From NCBI RefSeq assembly GCF_003018115.1, contig NZ_CP027457.1: a stretch of 64,000 nucleotides of DNA. The stretch is one strand, 5' to 3'. Below are positions 1 to 56,313 of the stretch, in pieces. The notes beneath the pieces are model-generated. The model ran no database searches. It was not told where the DNA came from and saw nothing but the letters and a program-made list of their open reading frames with translations. The stretch comes from Escherichia coli (lineage in GTDB: Bacteria > Pseudomonadota > Gammaproteobacteria > Enterobacterales > Enterobacteriaceae). The translations under genes and the position numbers were made by a program. The stretch's first letter is position 1. Each line of letters begins with the position of its first letter.

Positions 1-947
1 TTTCCCGCAGCGGCGTCATCGATAGCTTTGCGGTAAACCTGTGCGGTGCGTGCACAATAGTAGAAAGATTTGGTACGACCTTCGATTTTCAGCGAATGCA
101 CGCCCATTTTGGTCAGGCGTTCTACATGGGCGATGGCGCGCAGATCTTTCGAGTTCATGATGTAAGTGCCGTGCTCATCTTCAAACGCGGTCATATACTC
201 GCCCGGACGCTGGGCCTCTTCGATCATAAACACTTTGTCGGTTGGTGCGCCGATACCCAGCGTCGGCTCAACATTTTGCACCGGAATCGGCTCGTACTTG
301 TGTACGATGTTGCCAACATCATCTTCTTTCCCTTCCTGGACGTTGTACTCCCAGCGGCAGGCGTTGGTGCAGGTGCCCTGGTTCGGGTCGCGCTTGTTGA
401 TATAGCCAGAGAGCAGGCAGCGACCGGAGTAGGCCATGCACAGCGCGCCGTGAACGAAGATCTCGATCTCCATATCCGGCACCTGATTGCGGATCTCTTC
501 AATCTCTTCCAGCGACAGCTCGCGAGAGAGGATCACGCGGGTCAGGCCCATTTGCTGCCAGAATTTCACCGTCGCCCAGTTCACGGCGTTAGCCTGCACC
601 GAAAGGTGGATCGGCATTTCAGGGAAGTGCTCACGCACCAGCATAATCAGCCCTGGATCGGACATAATCAGCGCATCCGGCCCCATTTCCACCACCGGTT
701 TCAGGTCACGGATAAAGGTTTTCAGCTTGGCGTTGTGCGGTGCAATGTTGACCACGACATAAAACTTTTTCCCCAGCGCGTGGGCTTCATTGATGCCGAG
801 CTGAAGATTTTCGTGGTTGAATTCGTTGTTGCGCACACGCAGGGAATAACGCGGCTGGCCCGCATAAACAGCATCTGCGCCATAAGCGAAAGCGTAACGC
901 ATATTTTTCAGCGTTCCCGCCGGGGAAAGGAGTTCCGGTTTAAACAT
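1..947 (-). CDS. yegQ: U32-family peptidase YegQ, 5' portion only (gene runs off the window start)
   Basis: Minus-strand frame opens at ATG (complement of 945-947) and stays open to the window edge; translation starts MFKPELLSP. The + strand ORF 96..989 in the track is its antisense shadow. Confidence 0.8.
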   Translation of the reverse strand, partial: MFKPELLSPAGTLKNMRYAFAYGADAVYAGQPRYSLRVRNNEFNHENLQLGINEAHALGKKFYVVVNIAPHNAKLKTFIRDLKPVVEMGPDALIMSDPGLIMLVREHFPEMPIHLSVQANAVNWATVKFWQQMGLTRVILSRELSLEEIEEIRNQVPDMEIEIFVHGALCMAYSGRCLLSGYINKRDPNQGTCTNACRWEYNVQEGKEDDVGNIVHKYEPIPVQNVEPTLGIGAPTDKVFMIEEAQRPGEYMTAFEDEHGTYIMNSKDLRAIAHVERLTKMGVHSLKIEGRTKSFYYCARTAQVYRKAIDDAAAG

Positions 948-1049
948 AATTCTCTCGTTCTGATGACAGGTCAGATCCGCTTCACCTGATGAAGCGGTTA
1001 GGGGAGTGCCCCCACTTTAAGGGCGGGCATTGTAGCGCAATCGGCGGGT

Positions 1050-1346
1050 TTAGCTCCAGTGTAAATGTCTGGTGGCGTCCTGGTTTTGGTTAAGGATACG
1101 AATGACGATAATTTCCCCTGGTGATTGCAGGAAATAAATGACGTGGCGTTCAAAAGGAAGAACAAAAATACCTTCGCCTAATTCAGGTCTGGGCGTACCT
1201 ATATTATTGTTACTCAGAATCTGGAGAACGTCTGAAAGATGTTCCACATATCTGTCGGCTTGTGGTTCGCCGAAATGGTGATAGCTGTAATACCAGATGC
1301 CTTCTAAATCCTCATTGGCTTTTGGCATGAGTTTAATAATACGCAC
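1050..1346 (-). CDS. ParE/RelE-superfamily toxin (type II TA)
   Basis: 98-aa ORF; C-terminal segment PFERHVIYFLQSPGEIIVIRILNQNQD resembles the ParE fold signature; its start overlaps the stop of the upstream antitoxin-like ORF by about 1 nt. Confidence 0.65.
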   Translation of the reverse strand: MRIIKLMPKANEDLEGIWYYSYHHFGEPQADRYVEHLSDVLQILSNNNIGTPRPELGEGIFVLPFERHVIYFLQSPGEIIVIRILNQNQDATRHLHWS

Positions 1347-1347
1347 A

Positions 1348-1599
1348 TTATTTCCTTATCCCTGCTTTCACCTTCCGTAAGAACGCGTCCTTTTCCCACG
1401 GCTGAGCTTCACCACTACTCAACCCTTCTGCGAGCATGTCACGTAACGCTTGCAGGCGAGACTCTGCTTGCTTTTCTCGAAGTAATCGCAGTGACTCACG
1501 GATCACTTCGCTTTGGGTGCGATAGTCGCCGGATTCAATTAAGGACTCGATAAATTCACGCAACTCATCGCCGAGATCAACCGTCATCGTTCTGGCCAT
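1348..1599 (-). CDS. ParD-like ribbon-helix-helix antitoxin
   Basis: Small ORF, MARTMTVDLGDELREFIESLIESGDYRTQSEVIRESLRLLRE matches the ParD/CopG-like pattern; sits immediately upstream of the toxin. Track ORF extends to 1644; the internal Met at 1599 is the more likely start. Confidence 0.6.
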   Translation of the reverse strand: MARTMTVDLGDELREFIESLIESGDYRTQSEVIRESLRLLREKQAESRLQALRDMLAEGLSSGEAQPWEKDAFLRKVKAGIRK

Positions 1600-1852
1600 T
1601 TTACGCCCGCCTGTAAGTAAAAATCTTACATCAGTGTATGTCATAAACCGGATAGCGTCACGAAAGTATTAGAAGATATTTTGGCACATGAACATGTTCA
1701 GGAGGATAAGTATGGGATGGTAAACAAAGAAAGCACAACGAGTGCTCGTCAGTGCCCACTATTTTAATGGCGGCGGTTACTCTTAATTATTAATAACTAA
1801 GCGTTATTTGGATATAAAGCCGGACGCCAACAACCCACGCCCGGCATCGTAA

Positions 1853-2185
1853 TTACGTATTGTCTTTCACCGTCTGGCTTGTGCCATTGGCTTTAACGGA
1901 GGCAATTCCGGTTTCACGAGATTGCGCGGTGGCGTACATCTGGCTGGAGCCGATAATTTGATGATTAGCGGCTTTCAGATTGAAATAGAATTTGCCGTTA
2001 CTTGCCGTTTTTTTCTCATAGCGTTCTTCTTGCGGGCTGTTGCTACGCACCGACGCGATGCCCTTTTCCGCAGAGGCTTTTGAGGTATACAGCTCGCTGG
2101 TGAGGATAGTCTCACCATTGCCCGCTTTTAGCACAAACCGGAACTGATTATCACTGCTCTCACTGAGTTCAAACCAACCAGCCAT
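1853..2185 (-). CDS. yegP: YegP (DUF1508 family) protein
   Basis: Translation MAGWFELSESSDNQFRFVLKAGNGETILTSELYTSK... matches remembered YegP; start set at the internal Met of track ORF 1853..2224. Confidence 0.8.
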   Translation of the reverse strand: MAGWFELSESSDNQFRFVLKAGNGETILTSELYTSKASAEKGIASVRSNSPQEERYEKKTASNGKFYFNLKAANHQIIGSSQMYATAQSRETGIASVKANGTSQTVKDNT

Positions 2186-2375
2186 AATGACTCCTTGATT
2201 GAAATTGTGTATCGAAAACAGCATCTAAAGGTGCTGTTTACCGATTAAAGTATGAGCGATTTTCTGATGCCTGCCAGGGCGGAGAGATAATGTCAGTTTG
2301 CTGACCATGCGTGGGATAATGTTGCCGGATCGGGTCTGAACGCCATCTCCGGCTAACAAAATAATGTCGCTAAAA

Positions 2376-3098
2376 CTAAACGATGCGGCAGGCGTCGGCT
2401 TCCCAGCGGTAACCGACGCCGTAAACGGCGCGGATAAATGACTGTTCGGCGTCGAGAGATTCCAGCTTGCGGCGCAGGTTTTTAATGTGGCTGTCAATGG
2501 TGCGGTCGGTTACTACGCGGTAGTCGTCATAAAGATGATTGAGCAATTGCTCGCGGGAGAACACTTTTCCTGGTTCATGAGAGAGCGTTTTCAACAGACG
2601 AAATTCCGCAGGTGTCAGGTCAAGCATTTTACCGCGCCATGAAGCCTGAAAACGACCTTCGTCGATAATCAACGGGCTTTCAGCATCCTGTTGCTGCAAC
2701 TCGCGCTGCGGTTTGCAACGGCGCAAAATGGTTTTGACGCGCGCTACCACTTCCCGTGGGCTGTACGGCTTACAGATATAATCATCTGCGCCAATCTCCA
2801 GCCCCAGCAGGCGATCGATCTCTTCGATTTTTGCCGTCACCATCACGATCGGAATGTCAGAAAAACGACGAATTTCCCGGCACAGCGTCAGGCCATCGGT
2901 GCCAGGGAGCATCAGATCTAACAGGATCAGATCCGGTGGTGTCTGGCGCACATACGGCAGTACCTGATCGCCGTGGCTGATAAGCGTCGGCGCATAGCTC
3001 GCAGCACGCAGATAATCAATGAGCAACTGCCCCAGCTTCGGTTCATCTTCCACGATCAAAATACGCGGTGTGTTTTCGTCGATTGGTAACTCGGTCAT
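2376..3098 (-). CDS. baeR: Response regulator BaeR (OmpR family)
   Basis: 240 aa, receiver domain plus winged-helix; [26 protein letters not shown]...; 4-nt overlap with baeS. Confidence 0.95.
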
Positions 3099-4498
3099 AC
3101 TTCTCTCTGTAAATCCCGTTCCAGCGGTAACTCTACTGTAATGCTTACCCCGCCAAAAGGCGAATGGGCAGCAATAATGCGACCATTATGTGCTTCAACA
3201 ATGTTCAGGCAAATCGCCAGCCCCAGCCCGGAACCGCCGCTGGCACGGTTGCGGGAACCTTCGGTGCGATAAAAACGTTCAAACAATTTTTGTAGCTGAT
3301 CGTCACTGACACCTGGCGCACTGTCGGCAAAGGTCAGGCGCACCGTTTTGTCGCGCTGCCCGGCAGAGATTTGCAGGCTGCCGCCGCTGTCAGTGTAGCG
3401 CAGGCTGTTTTCCAGTAAGTTATTGAATAACTGCATTAAACGGTCGCGATCGCCAAATACGGTAATACTGTCTGGCAGGGAAAATTGCAGTTTCAGGCCA
3501 CGACTGGCGAATCGTTCGCGAAATGCGCCGCCCGCCACTTCCAGCAGTGGGATCAAATCTACCGGTGCTTTTTGATAGGCGAGAGCGCCTTCATCAGACA
3601 TCGACAACTGATGGAGATCGTCAACCAGTTTGGTCAGTGTACCGACCTCCGCCTGTAAAGACGCCACCGTCTCCGGCGTGAATTTACGCACGCCATCCTG
3701 AATGGCTTCCAGTTCACCGCGCAGCACCGCTAATGGCGTACGCAGTTCGTGAGAAATATCGGCCATAAAATCGCGCCGCATTTGCTGGTTTTTCTCCAGT
3801 GTGCTGGCAAGCTGGTTGAAGTCTTGCGCCAGTTTGCCCAGTTCATCTTCACTGGTGGGCGTTACGCGGGTAGTGAAATCGCCCGCCGCCAGTTTGTGCG
3901 TGCCATCGACAAGTCGTTTTACCGGTGCCAGTAAACCGCGCGCCAGCAGAAAGGTGGCGAGCGCCGCGAGTAACGTTGCCAGAGCGACAATCAACCAGCT
4001 GGTTTGCCGCTGTTGTTTATCGAAATTGATATCAGTATTGCGCGTTAACCGCTCAACGGGGGAGGCGATCACCGCGCCAACTTCCGCACCGTTGACCAGA
4101 ATGGGTCGCCGTGTACCGTCAGGTGGAATCGGCGCTCGCGGACCAACCAGCACTTTGTTGTTTTGATCAACCACCCAGAACTGGGTACGCCAGCCGTGCG
4201 GTGGCATACCCGGGCCGGGTTTATCTTCCGAATTATCGTGTTCAAATGAACGCAGGATCTGAAAGACAAAGCGATCATTGTTGCGCAGGAAGCGCCAGTT
4301 GCCATGCTGCGCATACTGCTCGCCAAGCGCATCACTTAACAGTTGTAATCGCTGTTCATTACCATGCTTGATGTAATCAATAAAGCCACGCTCAAAACTG
4401 ATACGCACCGCCCAGTGCATACTGATCAGCAAGACAATGCAGGTGGCGAAAATCGCCAGAAACAGTTTGCCGGTAATACCGGGTCGCCAGAACTTCAT
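3095..4498 (-). CDS. baeS: Sensor histidine kinase BaeS
   Basis: 467 aa with N-terminal TM segments, H-box (SHELRTPL) and ATPase motifs; position in the mdt-bae operon. Confidence 0.95.
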
Positions 4499-5910
4499 TG
4501 CGCGCTCCTTTTTCGCCGCGAAATAGCTACATTTTGATGCGTATCGTTCGGCACTCTGGCAAAGATGAACGCCGGAAGGGCGATGATCAACGCCATGCTA
4601 AGCCAGGTGTACATAAAGACGGTTTGTGTGGTGCCGCTGTCGACGCTGACATGCTGTGAACCAAAAAGTCCCAGCAACAGCCCGGCGATAGTGACGCCGA
4701 TACTCATCGACAATTGCATAATCATCGACAGCAGGCTGTTGCCGCTGCTCGCCAGATTGTCCGGGAGATCTTTCAGCGTCAGGGTGTTCATGGAGGAGAA
4801 ACGCGTCGAGTTGACCATCCCTTGTAAAAACAGGACGAACGGCAAAACGTAGTACCAGCCCAGCAGGGCGGTAGTCATAAACAACAGGGTGACCAGCGAC
4901 AGACCCAGCGTGGTCGCTACCAGTACCCGACGATAACCAAAGCGATTCACCACCTGTACCACAATTCGCTTCATTCCCATGCTGCCAAGCACCATCGGGA
5001 TCATCATCAGTCCGGCATGAAACGGTGAGAAACCGAGGCCAATTTGCAGGAAAACCGGTGTCATAAAGGGCAACATGCCACTGCCAATACGTCCGGCAAA
5101 GCTCCCCGCCAGGCCCAGCGAAAAGGTACGAGTGCGGAACAGTTTCAGACTGAAAAGAGCGCGGTGGTTATTTCTGGCGTGCAGCAGATAAAGCACCAGT
5201 GCCACCACGCCAACTGCGACCAGGCCTGCAATCGTCAGCGGCGATAAACCTGTACCTTTACTGCCGTCCAGCACCAGGGTTAATACCGCCATGCCAACCG
5301 CCAGCAATAAAAATCCGGAGAGATCAAAGCGCCGCGTCTGCATGGTGTAGTTCGGCATTAACAGCAATGTGGCGATCGCACCGATAATCCCCACCGGAAT
5401 GTTGATCAAAAAGATCCAGTGCCACGACGCGTACTCCACCAGCAGACCGCCGAGCGCCGGACCGAGCAGCGGACCGACCTGACCGGGTAACGTGACAAAG
5501 GTCATCGCCGCCATATATTGCTCGCGCGGTACGATTTTCATCACCGTCAATCTGCCGACCGGCACCATCATCGCGCCGCCAACGCCCTGTAACGCGCGTG
5601 CCAGCAACAGTTCGTTCAGCGTGCCGGAAAGCGCGCAAAACAGTGAACCGAGAGTAAACAGCACGATGGCGGTAAAGAAAATATTGCGCACGCCGACTTT
5701 GTCCGCCAGCCAGCCGCTGGCGGGCAGCATCACCGCCACGGTCAGCACATAAGAGACAATGACCATGTGCATATGCAACGGACTTTCCCCGAGGCTTTGC
5801 GCCATTGAGGGAAGGGCGGTGTTTACGATGGTGGTGTCCAGCGACTGCATAAAGAAGCCGAAAGCCACAATCCACAATTGCCAACGGGTGCTGTCGGGAA
5901 GATCTGTCAT
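4495..5910 (-). CDS. mdtD: MFS transporter MdtD
   Basis: 471 aa, polytopic membrane protein; operon position between mdtC and baeS. Confidence 0.9.
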
Positions 5911-8900
5911 TTACTCGGTTACCGTTTGTTTAGGTTTACGCGAAAAACGCAGCCGCAGACGGTCGAAAAAGAGATACACCACCGGCGTGGTATACAGCGT
6001 AAGGAGCTGGCTCATTACCAGTCCGCCGACAATGGTGATCCCCAGGGGTTGCCGCAGCTCCGAGCCGTCGCCGCCCGACAATACCAGCGGCAGCGCACCA
6101 AACAGCGCCGCCAGGGTGGTCATCATAATCGGGCGAAAACGCAGCAGACAGGCCTGGAAAATAGCTTCCTGCGGCGTCAGGTTACCGTGCCGTTGGGCTT
6201 CAAGCGCAAAATCGACCATCATAATGGCGTTTTTCTTCACGATGCCGATTAATAGCATGATCCCTATCAGGGCGATTAGGCTGAACGGGGCATTGAACAG
6301 CTCCAGCGCCAACAGCGCTCCAACGCCCGCCGAGGGCAGGGTGGAGAGAATCGTCAGCGGATGTACGTAACTCTCGTAAAGGATACCCAGCACGATATAC
6401 ACCGTGGCGATGGCGGCGATAATCAGGATCACCTGCGAGTTCATCGTCTCCTGGAACACCTGCGCCGTGCCGGCAAAACTGCCGCGCACCGTCGAAGGCA
6501 CACCAAGCTGGGTCATTGCGCGATCGATCGCCGCACTGGCGTCCGAGAGCGATTTTCCGGTCGGCAGGTTAAACGAAATGGTCGAGGCCGCCGATAATCC
6601 CTGATGATTCACCGATAGTGGGGCATTCGCCGGTTGCCATTTAGCGAAATACGACAGCGGGATCGCTTTGCCTTCGTTATTGATAACGAACATTTTTTCC
6701 AGCGCACTGATGTCCTGGGTATAGCGCGGATCCACTTCCATCACCACTTTATACTGGTTCATCGGCTGGTAAATGGTCGAGATTTGCCGCTGACCGAAGG
6801 CGTTATTTAACAGACTGTTGGCGGCTTGTACGTCGATTCCCAGCCGTGCCATGGTGTCACGGTCGTAAACCAGATTCATCTCCGCGCCGTTATCCTGCTG
6901 ATCGGAGTTCACGTCCGCCAGTTCCGGCAACGTCGCCAGTTTTTTGCGGATTTTCGGCTCCCATTCGCGCAGTGCCGCCAGGTCGTCGGATAACAACGTG
7001 TACTGGTAGCTGGCGTTCGACTGACGCCCACCAACGCGAATATCCTGTACCGCCATCAGGAACAGATTCGCCCCCGGTTCTTTCGCCAGTTTTACGCGCA
7101 GACGGTCGATAATTTGCTGCGCCGTTTCGCTGCGTTCGTCGCGTGGCTTGAGGGTGATAAACATCATCCCACTGTTAACTCGTGAACCGCCGGTAAAGCC
7201 GGTGACATTATCCACTGCCGGATCGTCACGGATAATTTTCATGAAATCCTGCAATTTGCCGCGCATCGCCTGAAACGAAATACTCTGATCCGCCTGAATC
7301 CCGCCCATCAACACGCCAGTGTCCTGCTCCGGGAAGAAGGTTTTCGGGATCGAGATATACAGCCAGATATTCAGCGCAATGGTGCCAAGCAGCACCACGC
7401 CCACCAGACGGGTATGATTGAGCACCCAGTTCAGTGACTTGCCGTAGCCTTGTTGCAGGGCTACCAACATGCGACCAAAACCACGCAGTCGCTTTTGCTC
7501 GCGCGGCTTGCTGGCTTTCAGCATCCAGCCACACATCATTGGCGTTAATGTCAGAGAAACCAGCAACGAAATACCAATGGCGACAGAAAGCGTCACGGCA
7601 AATTCGCGTAACAGTCGGCCCGGCAATCCGCCCATCAACAGCAGCGGCAGGAACACCGCCACCAGTGACAGACTCATCGACAGCACCGTAAAGCCGACTT
7701 CGCGAGTACCTTGTAGCGCGGCCTGTAGCGGTTTCATCCCCGCTTCCAGATGACGGGCAATGTTTTCCAGCACCACGATGGCGTCATCCACCACGAAACC
7801 AGTAGCGATGGTGAGCGCCATTAACGAAAGGTTATTGAGACTGAATCCGCACAGGTACATCGCCGCAAACGTACCAATCAGCGAAACCGGCACCGCAACG
7901 GCGGGAATAATAGTGGCGCGACCCGAGCGCAGGAATAAAAACACCACCAGAATCACCAGCGCCACCGAGATAATCAGCGTTTGCTCGACTTCTTCCAGCG
8001 AGGCGCGAATGGTGGGGGAGCGATCCTGAGCAATTTGCAGATCAATCGCCGCCGGAATGGTTTCCTGCAACTCCGGTAATTTTGCCCGGATGCTGTCTAC
8101 CGTCTGGATAATATTGGCTTCCGGCAGCTTGCGGATCATCAGCAAAATAGCCGGTTTGGCGTTGGTCATCCCGGCGTTGCGCACATCCTGCACCGAGTCG
8201 GTCACCGTCGCCACATCGCCCAGACGAACCGCGCCGCCGTTGTTGTAATGAATAATCAACGGCTGATATTCGGCGGCGGTTTTTAGCTCATCATTGGTCT
8301 GGATCTGCCAGCGGTGAGTGCCATCTTCCAGCGCCCCCTGCGGTTTACGCACGTTGGCATTGCTGATGGCGGTGCGTACGTCGTCCAGCGAGACGCCCTG
8401 ATTAAACAGCGCCTGCGGATTCAGCCCGACGCGTACGGCGGGCAGCGAGCTGCCGCCAACATCGACATCACCGACACCGTCGATTTGCGAAATCGTCGGA
8501 GCCAGCTGCGTCGAGGCAAAATCGTACAGTTCACCCTGCGAATAAGTATCGGATGTCAGCGTGAGGATCATAATTGGCGCATCCGACGGGTTAGCTTTGC
8601 GATAGGTCGGACGGCTGGGCATCCCGCTGGGCAGCAAACTTTGTGCAGCGTTGATCGCCGCCTGCACATCGCGCGCCGCGCCGTTGATATCCCGGTCAAA
8701 ATCAAACTGCAAAATAATACGCGTGCTGCCGAGCGAACTGCTGGAGGTCATTTCACTGACTCCGGCAATGCGCCCAAGTGAGCGCTCCAGCGGCGTGGCA
8801 ACGGAAGACGCCATTGTTTCTGGTGACGCACCGGGCAGCGAGGCGCTGACCATAATCACCGGAAAATCGACCTGCGGCAGCGGGGCGACCGGCAGCATAC

Positions 8901-54724: not shown

Positions 54725-56313
54725 TGCTTTTAATACTATCGTCTGCGTATATTGATATTGATTTACAGTCTGAATTTGGTCGGTTGCCACCGAGCATGTT
54801 ACCGCTAGGAAATAAACGATTAGTTCAACATCAAAAAAAACTTCTTAACACGAATGAGTTGATGATAATCACTTTACCTAAATCATATAAAATATCAGAA
54901 TGGGACAGGAAGTGGTTAGATAATAATAATATAAAAATAGTCTTTGTTAATGATGGTGGGGCGCTTGGTGAATCGGTATTATATGCTATTGAATATATTA
55001 AAACATTAAACATTTCTGAACATCTCAGGATTTTGTATGGAGATACTTTGATTCTTTCAAATATAAAAGATGACTCAAATGTAATCGCTGTATCTAACTC
55101 TGAGGATAATTATAACTGGGCTAGAGTCGAAAATCAGAATGCATATATAAAAATATCCACCGAAAATGATGTGGACATTTTAGGAGGAGATATACTTTGT
55201 GGCTATTTTTCATTTAGTGATATAGATCTTCTTCGGGAGTGTTTGATTTCTAATAATTATAACTTTATTGAAGCCATAAAAAGTTACCATGCAAAAAGTT
55301 TTCTATTTGTTAGAAAAATTGATGAATGGTTGGATTTTGGTCATGTGAATACTTATTACAAGTCAAAGATGAAATATACAACGCAAAGAGCATTCAATGA
55401 GTTATATATTAATTCAGATTGGGTATGCAAATCTAGTCAGGATTATGAGAAGATTTTAGCTGAGGCGAACTGGTTTGAAAAAATACCACTGGAATTAAAA
55501 AAATATATACCACAGTACTTAGGTAAAGAGTCTAAAAATAATAAGAGTGCAAGTTATAAACTAGAATATTTGTGTCATACTGCACTAAATGAATTATATG
55601 TCTTTAGTGAATTACCGCTAACTGTATGGAAGTCAATATTGGAAAAATGCCTTGACTTCGTTCGAGAGAGTAAAAGTTATATACCATCTGATAAAGAACG
55701 ATTCTCAACAATTAATGAGTTATTGATTGACAAGACCAATGCTAGGCTTGTCTCTTTCTGTTCAGAAAAACAATTTTCTATTAATGATAAATGGGACTTT
55801 AAGGGGAAAAGGATTAGTGTCTCTGATATACTTGATGTAGCGGCTAAATATATCCCTAATGATAATAATCCATCTTTGATGCACGGAGACTTATGCTTTA
55901 GTAATATATTATTTGATTTTAGAGCAGGTAGAATTAAATTAATTGATCCTCGAGGATTATCTGTTGATAGAAATTATACAATTTATGGTTCATACTATTA
56001 TGATTTAGCTAAACTTAGTCATTCAATATTGGGAATGTATGATTGGATAGTGGCAGGCTATTGTGATGCGAACATCTGTGAACGAAAAATAGAATTGAGT
56101 TTTGTTAATGATAAAAAAATCGAAAATATAAAAAGTATTTTTATTGACATGATTACTGCACAATTCGATATTACTCTAAATGAATTGTACGCAATGCAAA
56201 TTTATCTATTCTTATCAATGTTACCACTCCATTCAGATGATGTGCAACGGCAAAAAGCATTGTTCGCAAATGTCTTTAGATTATATGAACTTTTACAGGA
56301 GATTGAAAAATGA
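54724..56313 (+). CDS. Two-domain protein: N-terminal nucleotidyltransferase-like region and C-terminal choline/aminoglycoside-kinase-like domain
   Basis: 529 aa; C-terminal Brenner motif HGDLCFSNILFD (HGD at 55882-55890) and LIDPRG; start overlaps the upstream stop. Confidence 0.6.
   Translation: MLLILSSAYIDIDLQSEFGRLPPSMLPLGNKRLVQHQKKLLNTNELMIITLPKSYKISEWDRKWLDNNNIKIVFVNDGGALGESVLYAIEYIKTLNISEHLRILYGDTLILSNIKDDSNVIAVSNSEDNYNWARVENQNAYIKISTENDVDILGGDILCGYFSFSDIDLLRECLISNNYNFIEAIKSYHAKSFLFVRKIDEWLDFGHVNTYYKSKMKYTTQRAFNELYINSDWVCKSSQDYEKILAEANWFEKIPLELKKYIPQYLGKESKNNKSASYKLEYLCHTALNELYVFSELPLTVWKSILEKCLDFVRESKSYIPSDKERFSTINELLIDKTNARLVSFCSEKQFSINDKWDFKGKRISVSDILDVAAKYIPNDNNPSLMHGDLCFSNILFDFRAGRIKLIDPRGLSVDRNYTIYGSYYYDLAKLSHSILGMYDWIVAGYCDANICERKIELSFVNDKKIENIKSIFIDMITAQFDITLNELYAMQIYLFLSMLPLHSDDVQRQKALFANVFRLYELLQEIEK

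Follow-up and report, generated by a model that had tools for sequence, protein, structure and literature searches.

A ParD/ParE toxin-antitoxin pair as one of several allelic states of the Escherichia coli yegP-yegQ spacer

Introduction

Two small genes lie between yegP and yegQ (trhP) in the Escherichia coli contig NZ_CP027457.1 (assembly GCF_003018115.1), and the questions they raise are whether they form a toxin-antitoxin (TA) pair, to which class such a pair would belong, and how it relates to what other strains carry at the same site. The window analysed was a stretch of 64,000 nt of this contig, and coordinates count from its start. Our answer is that the two genes form a chromosomal type II TA operon of the ParE/ParD (PF05016/PF03693) class with the canonical working of that class, a reading to which we assign a probability of roughly 0.85. 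The pair is an ordinary accessory TA module, already annotated in RefSeq in about one third of complete E. coli genomes, and its own importance goes little beyond bookkeeping. What is added here is small: a probable correction of a start codon, a putative operator, and an account of the yegP-yegQ spacer as a multi-allelic site.

Layout of the locus

The window begins inside yegQ/trhP, a minus-strand gene with its start codon at 946, which forms the left flank of the pair. On the right lie yegP (1853..2185, minus strand) and then baeR, baeS and mdtD, the region reproducing the K-12 order mdtABCD-baeSR-yegP-yegQ in reverse reading. Two co-oriented minus-strand open reading frames (ORFs) were listed in the spacer, at 1050..1346 (98 aa, GTG start) and 1348..1644 (98 aa, ATG start). 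A preliminary description of this DNA had reported two small minus-strand ORFs, antitoxin first, at 1050-1644 between yegP and yegQ; these coordinates prove exact and agree with the annotation of the Prokaryotic Genome Annotation Pipeline (PGAP). It had also described the ORFs as overlapping, which is not so: the antitoxin stop codon TAA (1350-1348) is followed by a single spacer base, T (1347), and then by the toxin GTG (1346-1344), so that the ORFs abut with a 1-nt gap. The ATG contained in the TAATG of this junction is out of frame with the toxin. The two genes, as assigned here, are as follows.

1050..1346, minus strand: parE, ParE-family toxin of 98 aa, stop codon at 1050-1052 (evidence: ORF, Pfam, PDB, AlphaFold2/Foldseek, dN/dS)
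1348..1599, minus strand: parD, ParD antitoxin (PF03693, ribbon-helix-helix) of 83 aa if read from the probable start ATG 1599, the PGAP start being ATG 1644 (98 aa) (evidence: Pfam, TIGR02606, PrpA match, dN/dS 0.023)

In the RefSeq genome of E. coli 07-4299, which is 100% identical at the locus, PGAP annotates both coding sequences at identical coordinates, naming them 'type II toxin-antitoxin system RelE/ParE family toxin' (WP_001220181.1) and 'ParD family antitoxin' (WP_001307279.1). Both proteins are stored in public databases under these names, from at least 1,000 contigs each. The arrangement is that of a type II TA operon: small, adjacent and co-oriented genes with the antitoxin first, spaced by 1 nt, and preceded by an operator-like palindrome near a -10-like hexamer. 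As both ORFs give significant family matches, described below, they are not chance ORFs.

Family and fold of the toxin

The toxin matched the Pfam family PF05016 (ParE_toxin) with an E-value of 1.8e-13 and 51.3 bits, against a gathering cut-off of 23. The match spans residues 4-90 of the toxin and positions 1-88 of the 89 in the profile; an NCBIfam search with the toxin gave no match. A sequence search of the PDB returned ParE-type toxins only, namely PrpT (7YCS, 2.3e-12), Mycobacterium tuberculosis ParE1, Caulobacter ParE1, Vibrio cholerae ParE2 and Mesorhizobium ParE2. An AlphaFold2 model, built from a 7-sequence alignment containing ParE homologues, reached a predicted local distance difference test value (pLDDT) of 92.9 and a predicted template modelling score (pTM) of 0.84. 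Its elements (strand 3-6, helices 8-25 and 27-46, strands 60-65, 68-74 and 78-86) make up β1, a long α1-α2 hairpin and a three-stranded antiparallel sheet, while a short C-terminal helix (residues 91-95) falls within the low-confidence tail. Foldseek comparison of the model with the PDB placed ParE-type toxins at every rank from 1 to 22, the closest having template modelling (TM) scores of 0.83-0.88 (0.88 for 7YCS_A).

Both PF05016 and the PGAP name extend to the 'RelE/ParE' superfamily as a whole, and the toxin might on that ground be a ribosome-dependent mRNA endonuclease of the RelE type, not a gyrase poison. This we judge extremely improbable. A BLASTP comparison with E. coli RelE produced no alignment at E ≤ 100, and no RelE appeared among the PDB sequence matches at E ≤ 1. 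Structures of RelE, YoeB and YafQ score only TM 0.5-0.67 against the model, compared with 0.83-0.88 for ParE, and the model has the long α-hairpin of the ParE type; moreover the toxin is paired with a ParD (PF03693) and not with a RelB. At the level of whole-sequence searches, then, the toxin is without detectable similarity to RelE, which serves as a proxy for a comparison of the RelE catalytic residues and C-terminal helix residue by residue.

One position deserves separate mention. Trp25 of VcParE2, at the tip of the hairpin, is reported as the key gyrase-contact residue, which only Tyr can replace without loss of toxicity, Phe lowering it. The residue aligned with it here is Phe25, and Phe is found at the hairpin tip also in PrpT and in the plasmid homologue considered below.

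Family and start codon of the antitoxin

For the antitoxin, matches lay above the curated cut-offs both of Pfam PF03693 (ParD_antitoxin; E=4.3e-19, 69.2 bits, cut-off 21) and of NCBIfam TIGR02606 (CC2985 type; E=2.3e-25, 88.4 bits, cut-off 46.2). The PDB sequence search retrieved only partners of ParE toxins, with PrpA at 1.9e-27, and the antitoxin aligned over its full length with PrpA, VcParD2, CcParD1 and MtParD1. By sequence alignment it possesses both an N-terminal ribbon-helix-helix and a C-terminal toxin-binding region, and a weak RHH_1 match covers residues 6-42. The preliminary description had recognised ParD-type (ribbon-helix-helix) and ParE-type proteins, and this stands for both; profile searches that might have uncovered unrelated families returned ParE_toxin and ParD_antitoxin/TIGR02606 instead.

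The antitoxin probably starts at ATG 1599, giving a protein of 83 aa that begins MARTMTV, which makes the PGAP start at ATG 1644 too long by 15 codons. Four lines of comparison agree on this. Alignments with the ParD Pfam profile and with the PDB homologues cover the protein from MARTMTV on, and nothing in them corresponds to the 15-codon extension. In E. whittamii stop codons fall inside the corresponding 45 nt, and the ORF listing there gives an 83-aa ORF. In E. coli O55:H7 DEC5E, which carries an allele of 97% identity, a 1-nt insertion falls in the 45-nt extension while the 83-aa ORF is intact and its protein identical. Finally, the Klebsiella plasmid homologue begins at MARTMTV. With the promoter proposed below, ATG 1644 would moreover fall in the promoter spacer.

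PGAP labels the antitoxin gene of O55:H7 DEC5E 'frameshifted', that is a pseudogene (1310-1607 in the coordinates of the extracted locus). This flag is an artefact of the over-long start model, which thus yields a false pseudogene call at least in the O55:H7 strain examined.

Described relatives

The best solved relative of both proteins is PrpT/PrpA of the Pseudoalteromonas rubra plasmid pMBL6842 (7YCS, 7YCU, 7YCV and 7YCW), two papers confirming that 7YCS is PrpT/PrpA of this species. The two systems share the ParE/PF03693 pairing, the gene order, an identical antitoxin β-strand (RTMTVD) and the Phe at the hairpin tip, although toxin identity is only about 32-34%. PrpTA forms a heterotetramer and binds its promoter (PMC9731233, PMC7848731). 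It differs in being plasmid-borne and in that PrpA also binds plasmid iterons, controlling copy number, a function with no obvious counterpart in the chromosomal spacer.

V. cholerae ParD2/ParE2 (7R5A), Caulobacter ParD1/ParE1 (3KXE) and M. tuberculosis ParD1/ParE1 (8C24) share the Pfam families and the toxin fold (TM 0.83-0.85), and their toxins align over the full length at 29-32% identity; all three have Trp at the hairpin tip where Phe25 stands here. VcParE2 is a gyrase poison. More generally, gyrase is given as the ParE target in the review literature, with RK2 ParE cited, and RK2/RP4 ParD/ParE is presented there as the prototype of ParE gyrase inhibitors and of plasmid addiction modules. 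Its antitoxin, however, belongs to PF09386 (PMC7848731), and RK2 is set apart here by that published description. A further chromosomal ParE of E. coli is that of PaaR2-PaaA2-ParE2 in O157:H7 prophages (5CW7/5CZF), which shares the ParE fold (TM 0.77) but is 16-17% identical, prophage-borne and one of three components in a system whose antitoxin, PaaA2, is unrelated. On account of the family matches, the PDB and Foldseek rankings and the lack of a RelE alignment, the pair belongs to the ParE/PF03693 class, and neither to RelBE nor to the RK2 ParE/PF09386 class.

Allelic states of the spacer

The preliminary description had held that K-12 has no genes between yegP and yegQ and that the module is strain-variable. 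Both points were upheld: in K-12 MG1655 the yegP-trhP spacer measures 146 bp and contains no gene, and a megablast search of the locus against 5,426 complete E. coli genomes found the flanks in 5,423 but the module in 1,845 (34%), which rules out universal presence. PGAP annotates the ParD/ParE pair in these 1,845 genomes. The module was always a single chromosomal copy and always at the yegP-yegQ site, with an identity of at least 99% in 1,517 genomes and of 95-99% in 327. BL21 and the sampled O157:H7 strains, like K-12, have an empty site. A third allele, found in 305 of the 5,426 genomes (LF82, sequence type 95 and uropathogenic strains), has an island of about 5 kb in place of ParDE. The segments that define these states are the following.

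1039..1819 (781 bp), no strand: segment present here and represented by about 22 bp in the empty alleles of BL21, O157:H7 and K-12 (alignment, megablast counts)
1069..1756, no strand: core replaced by the ~5-kb PcfJ/DUF1266/DUF4034 island in 305 genomes, the ends 1039-1068 and 1757-1819 being retained (alignments)

The island, located at about 870-5935 of the extracted locus in E. coli N39, encodes a PcfJ-domain protein, a DUF1266 protein, a 702-aa DUF4034 protein and a 201-aa protein without family; a PADLOC search with the four proteins gave no match. The stretch 1039-1068 that is kept in the island allele covers the end of parE (its five final codons and the stop, so that its last 19 nt are retained) and a further 11 bp. 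The HLHW C-terminus encoded there is also conserved in the plasmid homologue, which marks the stretch as a genuine remnant of parE and in turn implies that the island replaced the ParDE core. Remnants of the module thus occur in other alleles, and also in another Escherichia species (below); as judged from these sequences, the polymorphism is not one of simple insertion, since deletion or replacement of the module has occurred as well, and repeatedly. The yegP-yegQ spacer has at least three allelic states, of which the module is one. With its empty, ParDE, 5-kb island and remnant states the locus offers a clean natural multi-allelic TA site that bears on how chromosomal TA modules move and decay, and K-12 provides a natural null background for toxicity.

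Seven further genomes match only the last gene of the island, at 80-90% identity. In the nominally complete genome of BS-04 the spacer (1040-1740 of the extracted locus) is filled with long A, T and C homopolymer runs that look like an artefact of assembly or polishing. This genome had been considered as an allele keeping only the upstream 163 bp and was discarded for its homopolymer-ridden, low-quality sequence.

Other species, selection and history

When bacteria were scanned with one genome for each species, no more than three loci came up. E. whittamii has an intact pair at the yegP-yegQ site, with a toxin 96% identical. In Escherichia sp. E1V33 the same site has suffered an internal deletion of about 560 bp; what remains is about 100 bp of upstream sequence and 128 bp from the 3' end of a parE that is frameshifted and lacks its stop. 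Pluralibacter gergoviae has a relative with a frameshifted toxin, located between alr and tyrB.

Between E. coli and E. whittamii, parD shows 11 synonymous differences and 1 non-synonymous, with a ratio of non-synonymous to synonymous divergence (dN/dS) of 0.023, and parE shows 9 and 4, respectively (dN/dS 0.106). These low ratios indicate that both genes are under purifying selection. They bear on the notion that the genes are decaying passengers without current activity, to which decayed copies elsewhere lend some colour (E1V33, the frameshifted Pluralibacter toxin, pseudogenes on an IncF plasmid, a copy disrupted by IS1). That notion is very improbable: neither ORF is broken in this genome, in E. 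whittamii or in the 97% allele, the differences from E. whittamii amount to 20 synonymous against 5 non-synonymous, and the 'frameshifted' flag in O55:H7 is spurious, as explained above.

The history of the module in the genus is probably one of exchange between Escherichia lineages after their split, and not of simple inheritance. Synonymous divergence (dS) from E. whittamii is 0.16-0.23 in the module, well below that of its neighbours (0.48 in baeR, about 1.05 in yegP; Fisher p=5e-4), and the 63-bp end on the yegP side is only 74% identical, compared with 95-96% for the module genes. As to yegP itself (DUF1508, two repeats; 1853-2185, compared with 2160-2492 of the E. whittamii extracted locus), its dS is twice that of baeR and five times that of parDE. 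The synonymous divergence of yegP suggests mosaic recombination around the spacer.

Upstream and translation signals

Upstream sequences were aligned for six loci, of which three are chromosomal alleles of Escherichia; the others come from a K. pneumoniae IncFIB/FII plasmid, the Pluralibacter chromosome and an IncFIA/FIB plasmid of E. coli. The only block conserved across them is a palindrome of the type TGTAAGA-N5-TCTTACA, whose end lies about 12 nt short of the start codon, the regions being otherwise unalignable. In every locus a -10-like hexamer stands 2-3 nt upstream of the palindrome, reading TATAAT in the Klebsiella plasmid, TACACT here and TATCAT or TAAACT in the others. From this conservation the palindrome at 1612-1630 is the probable ParD operator, and we infer a weak promoter whose transcription start would lie inside it. 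The signals assigned are these.

1612..1630, minus strand: predicted ParD operator, palindrome TGTAAGA-TTTTT-ACTTACA (conservation across six loci)
1633..1661, minus strand: candidate sigma-70 promoter, -35 GTGACG at 1661-1656, 17-nt spacer, -10 TACACT at 1638-1633 (comparative inference)
1606..1612, minus strand: putative Shine-Dalgarno-like AGGCGGG before ATG 1599; the counterpart is AGGAGAG in O55:H7 and AAGAGAG in E. whittamii
1353..1357, minus strand: putative Shine-Dalgarno-like AAGGA, 6 nt before the parE GTG and inside the 3' end of parD (read from the sequence)
1731..1747, minus strand: terminator-like hairpin and T-run upstream of the promoter, inside the variable segment, partly conserved in other alleles (sequence scan)

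An operator of the PrpA type was also sought. Its motif, TTTGWAAT with at most one mismatch, is absent from 1600-1819, and its 132 occurrences across the window, against 145 expected, are at chance level; a PrpA-type operator was accordingly discarded.

Downstream, no intrinsic terminator was found after parE, and read-through into yegQ is hence possible. Folding of the RNA of the parE-yegQ spacer gave a structure no better than those of shuffled sequences (z = -0.85), and an Rfam search of 800-2400 at E ≤ 1 gave no match.

Proposed working

The working set out here takes toxicity, the gyrase target, autoregulation and stoichiometry from the family, and combines them with what was computed for this locus, namely gene presence, family, fold, purifying selection, the conserved palindrome and strain variability. 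The weak candidate promoter (-35 at 1661-1656, -10 at 1638-1633) would drive a bicistronic parD-parE transcript. A ribbon-helix-helix dimer of ParD would bind the palindrome at 1612-1630, which overlaps the predicted transcription start, and so repress the operon. The C-terminal half of ParD would wrap around ParE and neutralise it, probably in a ParE:ParD2:ParE heterotetramer like that of PrpT/PrpA. Upon depletion of ParD, the toxin set free would use the tip of its N-terminal α-hairpin (Phe25) to poison DNA gyrase, leading to DNA damage and growth arrest.

Several points weigh against this account. By analogy with VcParE2, Phe25 may mean a lower potency of this toxin, and there are reports of ParE proteins that lack toxicity (PaParE1). 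In one genome (NZ_CM142896.1, 680371-681927) an insertion sequence, IS1B, lies inside parE, the toxin being annotated in two pieces and the antitoxin retained, from which it follows that the toxin can be lost. The two papers on PrpT (PMC9731233 and PMC7848731) do not mention gyrase and report no target there. As regards expression, a sigma-70 consensus scan found no minus-strand promoter at its threshold, the candidate scoring 8/12 and falling under it, and with the PrpA motif TTTGWAAT absent upstream the operator is assigned by conservation alone. Finally, no experimental study of this pair was found in the literature searched on the locus, the toxin and chromosomal E. coli parDE.

Plasmid relatives and possible cross-immunity

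Diverged relatives of the toxin occur on 2,157 enterobacterial plasmid records (1,380 from Klebsiella, 459 from Escherichia), of which 1,650 are conjugative. The K. pneumoniae IncFIB/FII plasmid pINF078-VP (WP_086624930.1) carries an intact pair with a toxin 65% and an antitoxin 92% identical to those described here. It shares the toxin length, an RHLHW toxin C-terminus, the GTG start and the operator-like palindrome; it differs in its plasmid location, a 14-nt overlap of the genes and a consensus TATAAT -10 hexamer. By contrast with this intact pair, that of the E. coli IncFIA/FIB plasmid pRIVM_C039227_1 (3000-3545 of the extracted locus) is decayed, consisting of a truncated antitoxin of 60 aa and a toxin fragment of 53 aa about 1.4 kb from the RepB gene, and is missing from the PLSDB gene table. 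Match statistics identical to those of pRIVM_C039227_1 were seen for many other E. coli IncF plasmids.

Such relatives raise an explanation for the persistence of the pair in the chromosome: its main benefit would be a ParD able to neutralise, and to co-repress, the ParE of related plasmid-borne modules, allowing a plasmid to be lost without post-segregational killing. The greater identity of the antitoxins (92%) than of the toxins (65%) in the comparison with the K. pneumoniae plasmid fits this idea. So do the palindrome common to the chromosomal module and that plasmid, the abundance of toxin relatives on largely conjugative enterobacterial plasmids, the decay of the pair in the E. coli plasmid examined and the tighter constraint on the antitoxin (dN/dS 0.023 vs 0.106). 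The toxin is nevertheless also under purifying selection, which a pure immunity role would not require, and we regard the explanation as unlikely. The narrower proposal, that chromosomal ParD could act as a resident 'anti-addiction' immunity neutralising the ParE of IncF-type plasmids, seems to us slightly less likely again, although if true it would account for both the stronger constraint on the antitoxin and the pseudogene pair on the E. coli IncFIA/FIB plasmid. Conservation of antitoxin and operator would at any rate allow cross-neutralisation between chromosome and plasmid, and their near-identity with the plasmid modules makes cross-immunity readily testable.

Mobility and a possible role against phages

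Signatures of mobility were looked for around 1039-1819. No integrase or insertion sequence lies beside the segment, its neighbours being core genes, and no target-site duplication was found. Terminal direct or inverted repeats were limited to short, chance-level matches, the best of 17 nt at 82% and involving the yegP terminator, while the AT-rich right end does not, by eye, fit the consensus of an integron core site. No near-identical module was found on plasmids, the two sole 'plasmid' matches being mislabelled records of megabase, chromosome size. One review describes TA insertion loci as plastic and their mechanism of integration as unknown, and such plasticity fits the alleles seen here. 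A weaker idea is that the yegP-yegQ spacer might be a recombination hotspot at which cassettes are swapped between the conserved 30-bp and 63-bp ends.

The preliminary description had proposed an addiction or defence role, which for this pair is putative. The module varies between strains, and its spacer is occupied elsewhere by different accessory cargo; this invites the thought of abortive infection, in which a phage would deplete ParD and the freed ParE would kill or arrest the cell; reviews name type II TA systems as possible phage-defence elements. A PADLOC search with the toxin, the antitoxin and YegP gave no match, as with the four island proteins, there are no neighbouring defence genes, and among phages only one record, a 2-kb fragment, carries a relative, which is partial and detected at protein level. 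A role of this kind is accordingly improbable, and the canonical ParD/ParE operon of the preceding sections remains our preferred reading.

Other observations in the window

In the 103-nt spacer that precedes yegQ, the leader of yegQ/trhP contains a stem of 9 perfectly paired bp (CCGCTTCAT/GTGAAGCGG region) together with a hairpin rich in G/C, on the minus strand at 958-978 and 1010-1031. These elements are 96% conserved in E. whittamii, with no Rfam match and a fold energy no better than that of shuffled sequences. A -10-like hexamer for yegQ, TACAAT, lies just inside the shared flank, so that the sequence where its -35 would stand is changed by the indel junction.

Elsewhere in the window, TTTGWAAT with one mismatch is much denser at about 55000-63500 than in the remainder, which hints at an AT-rich segment, possibly horizontally acquired.

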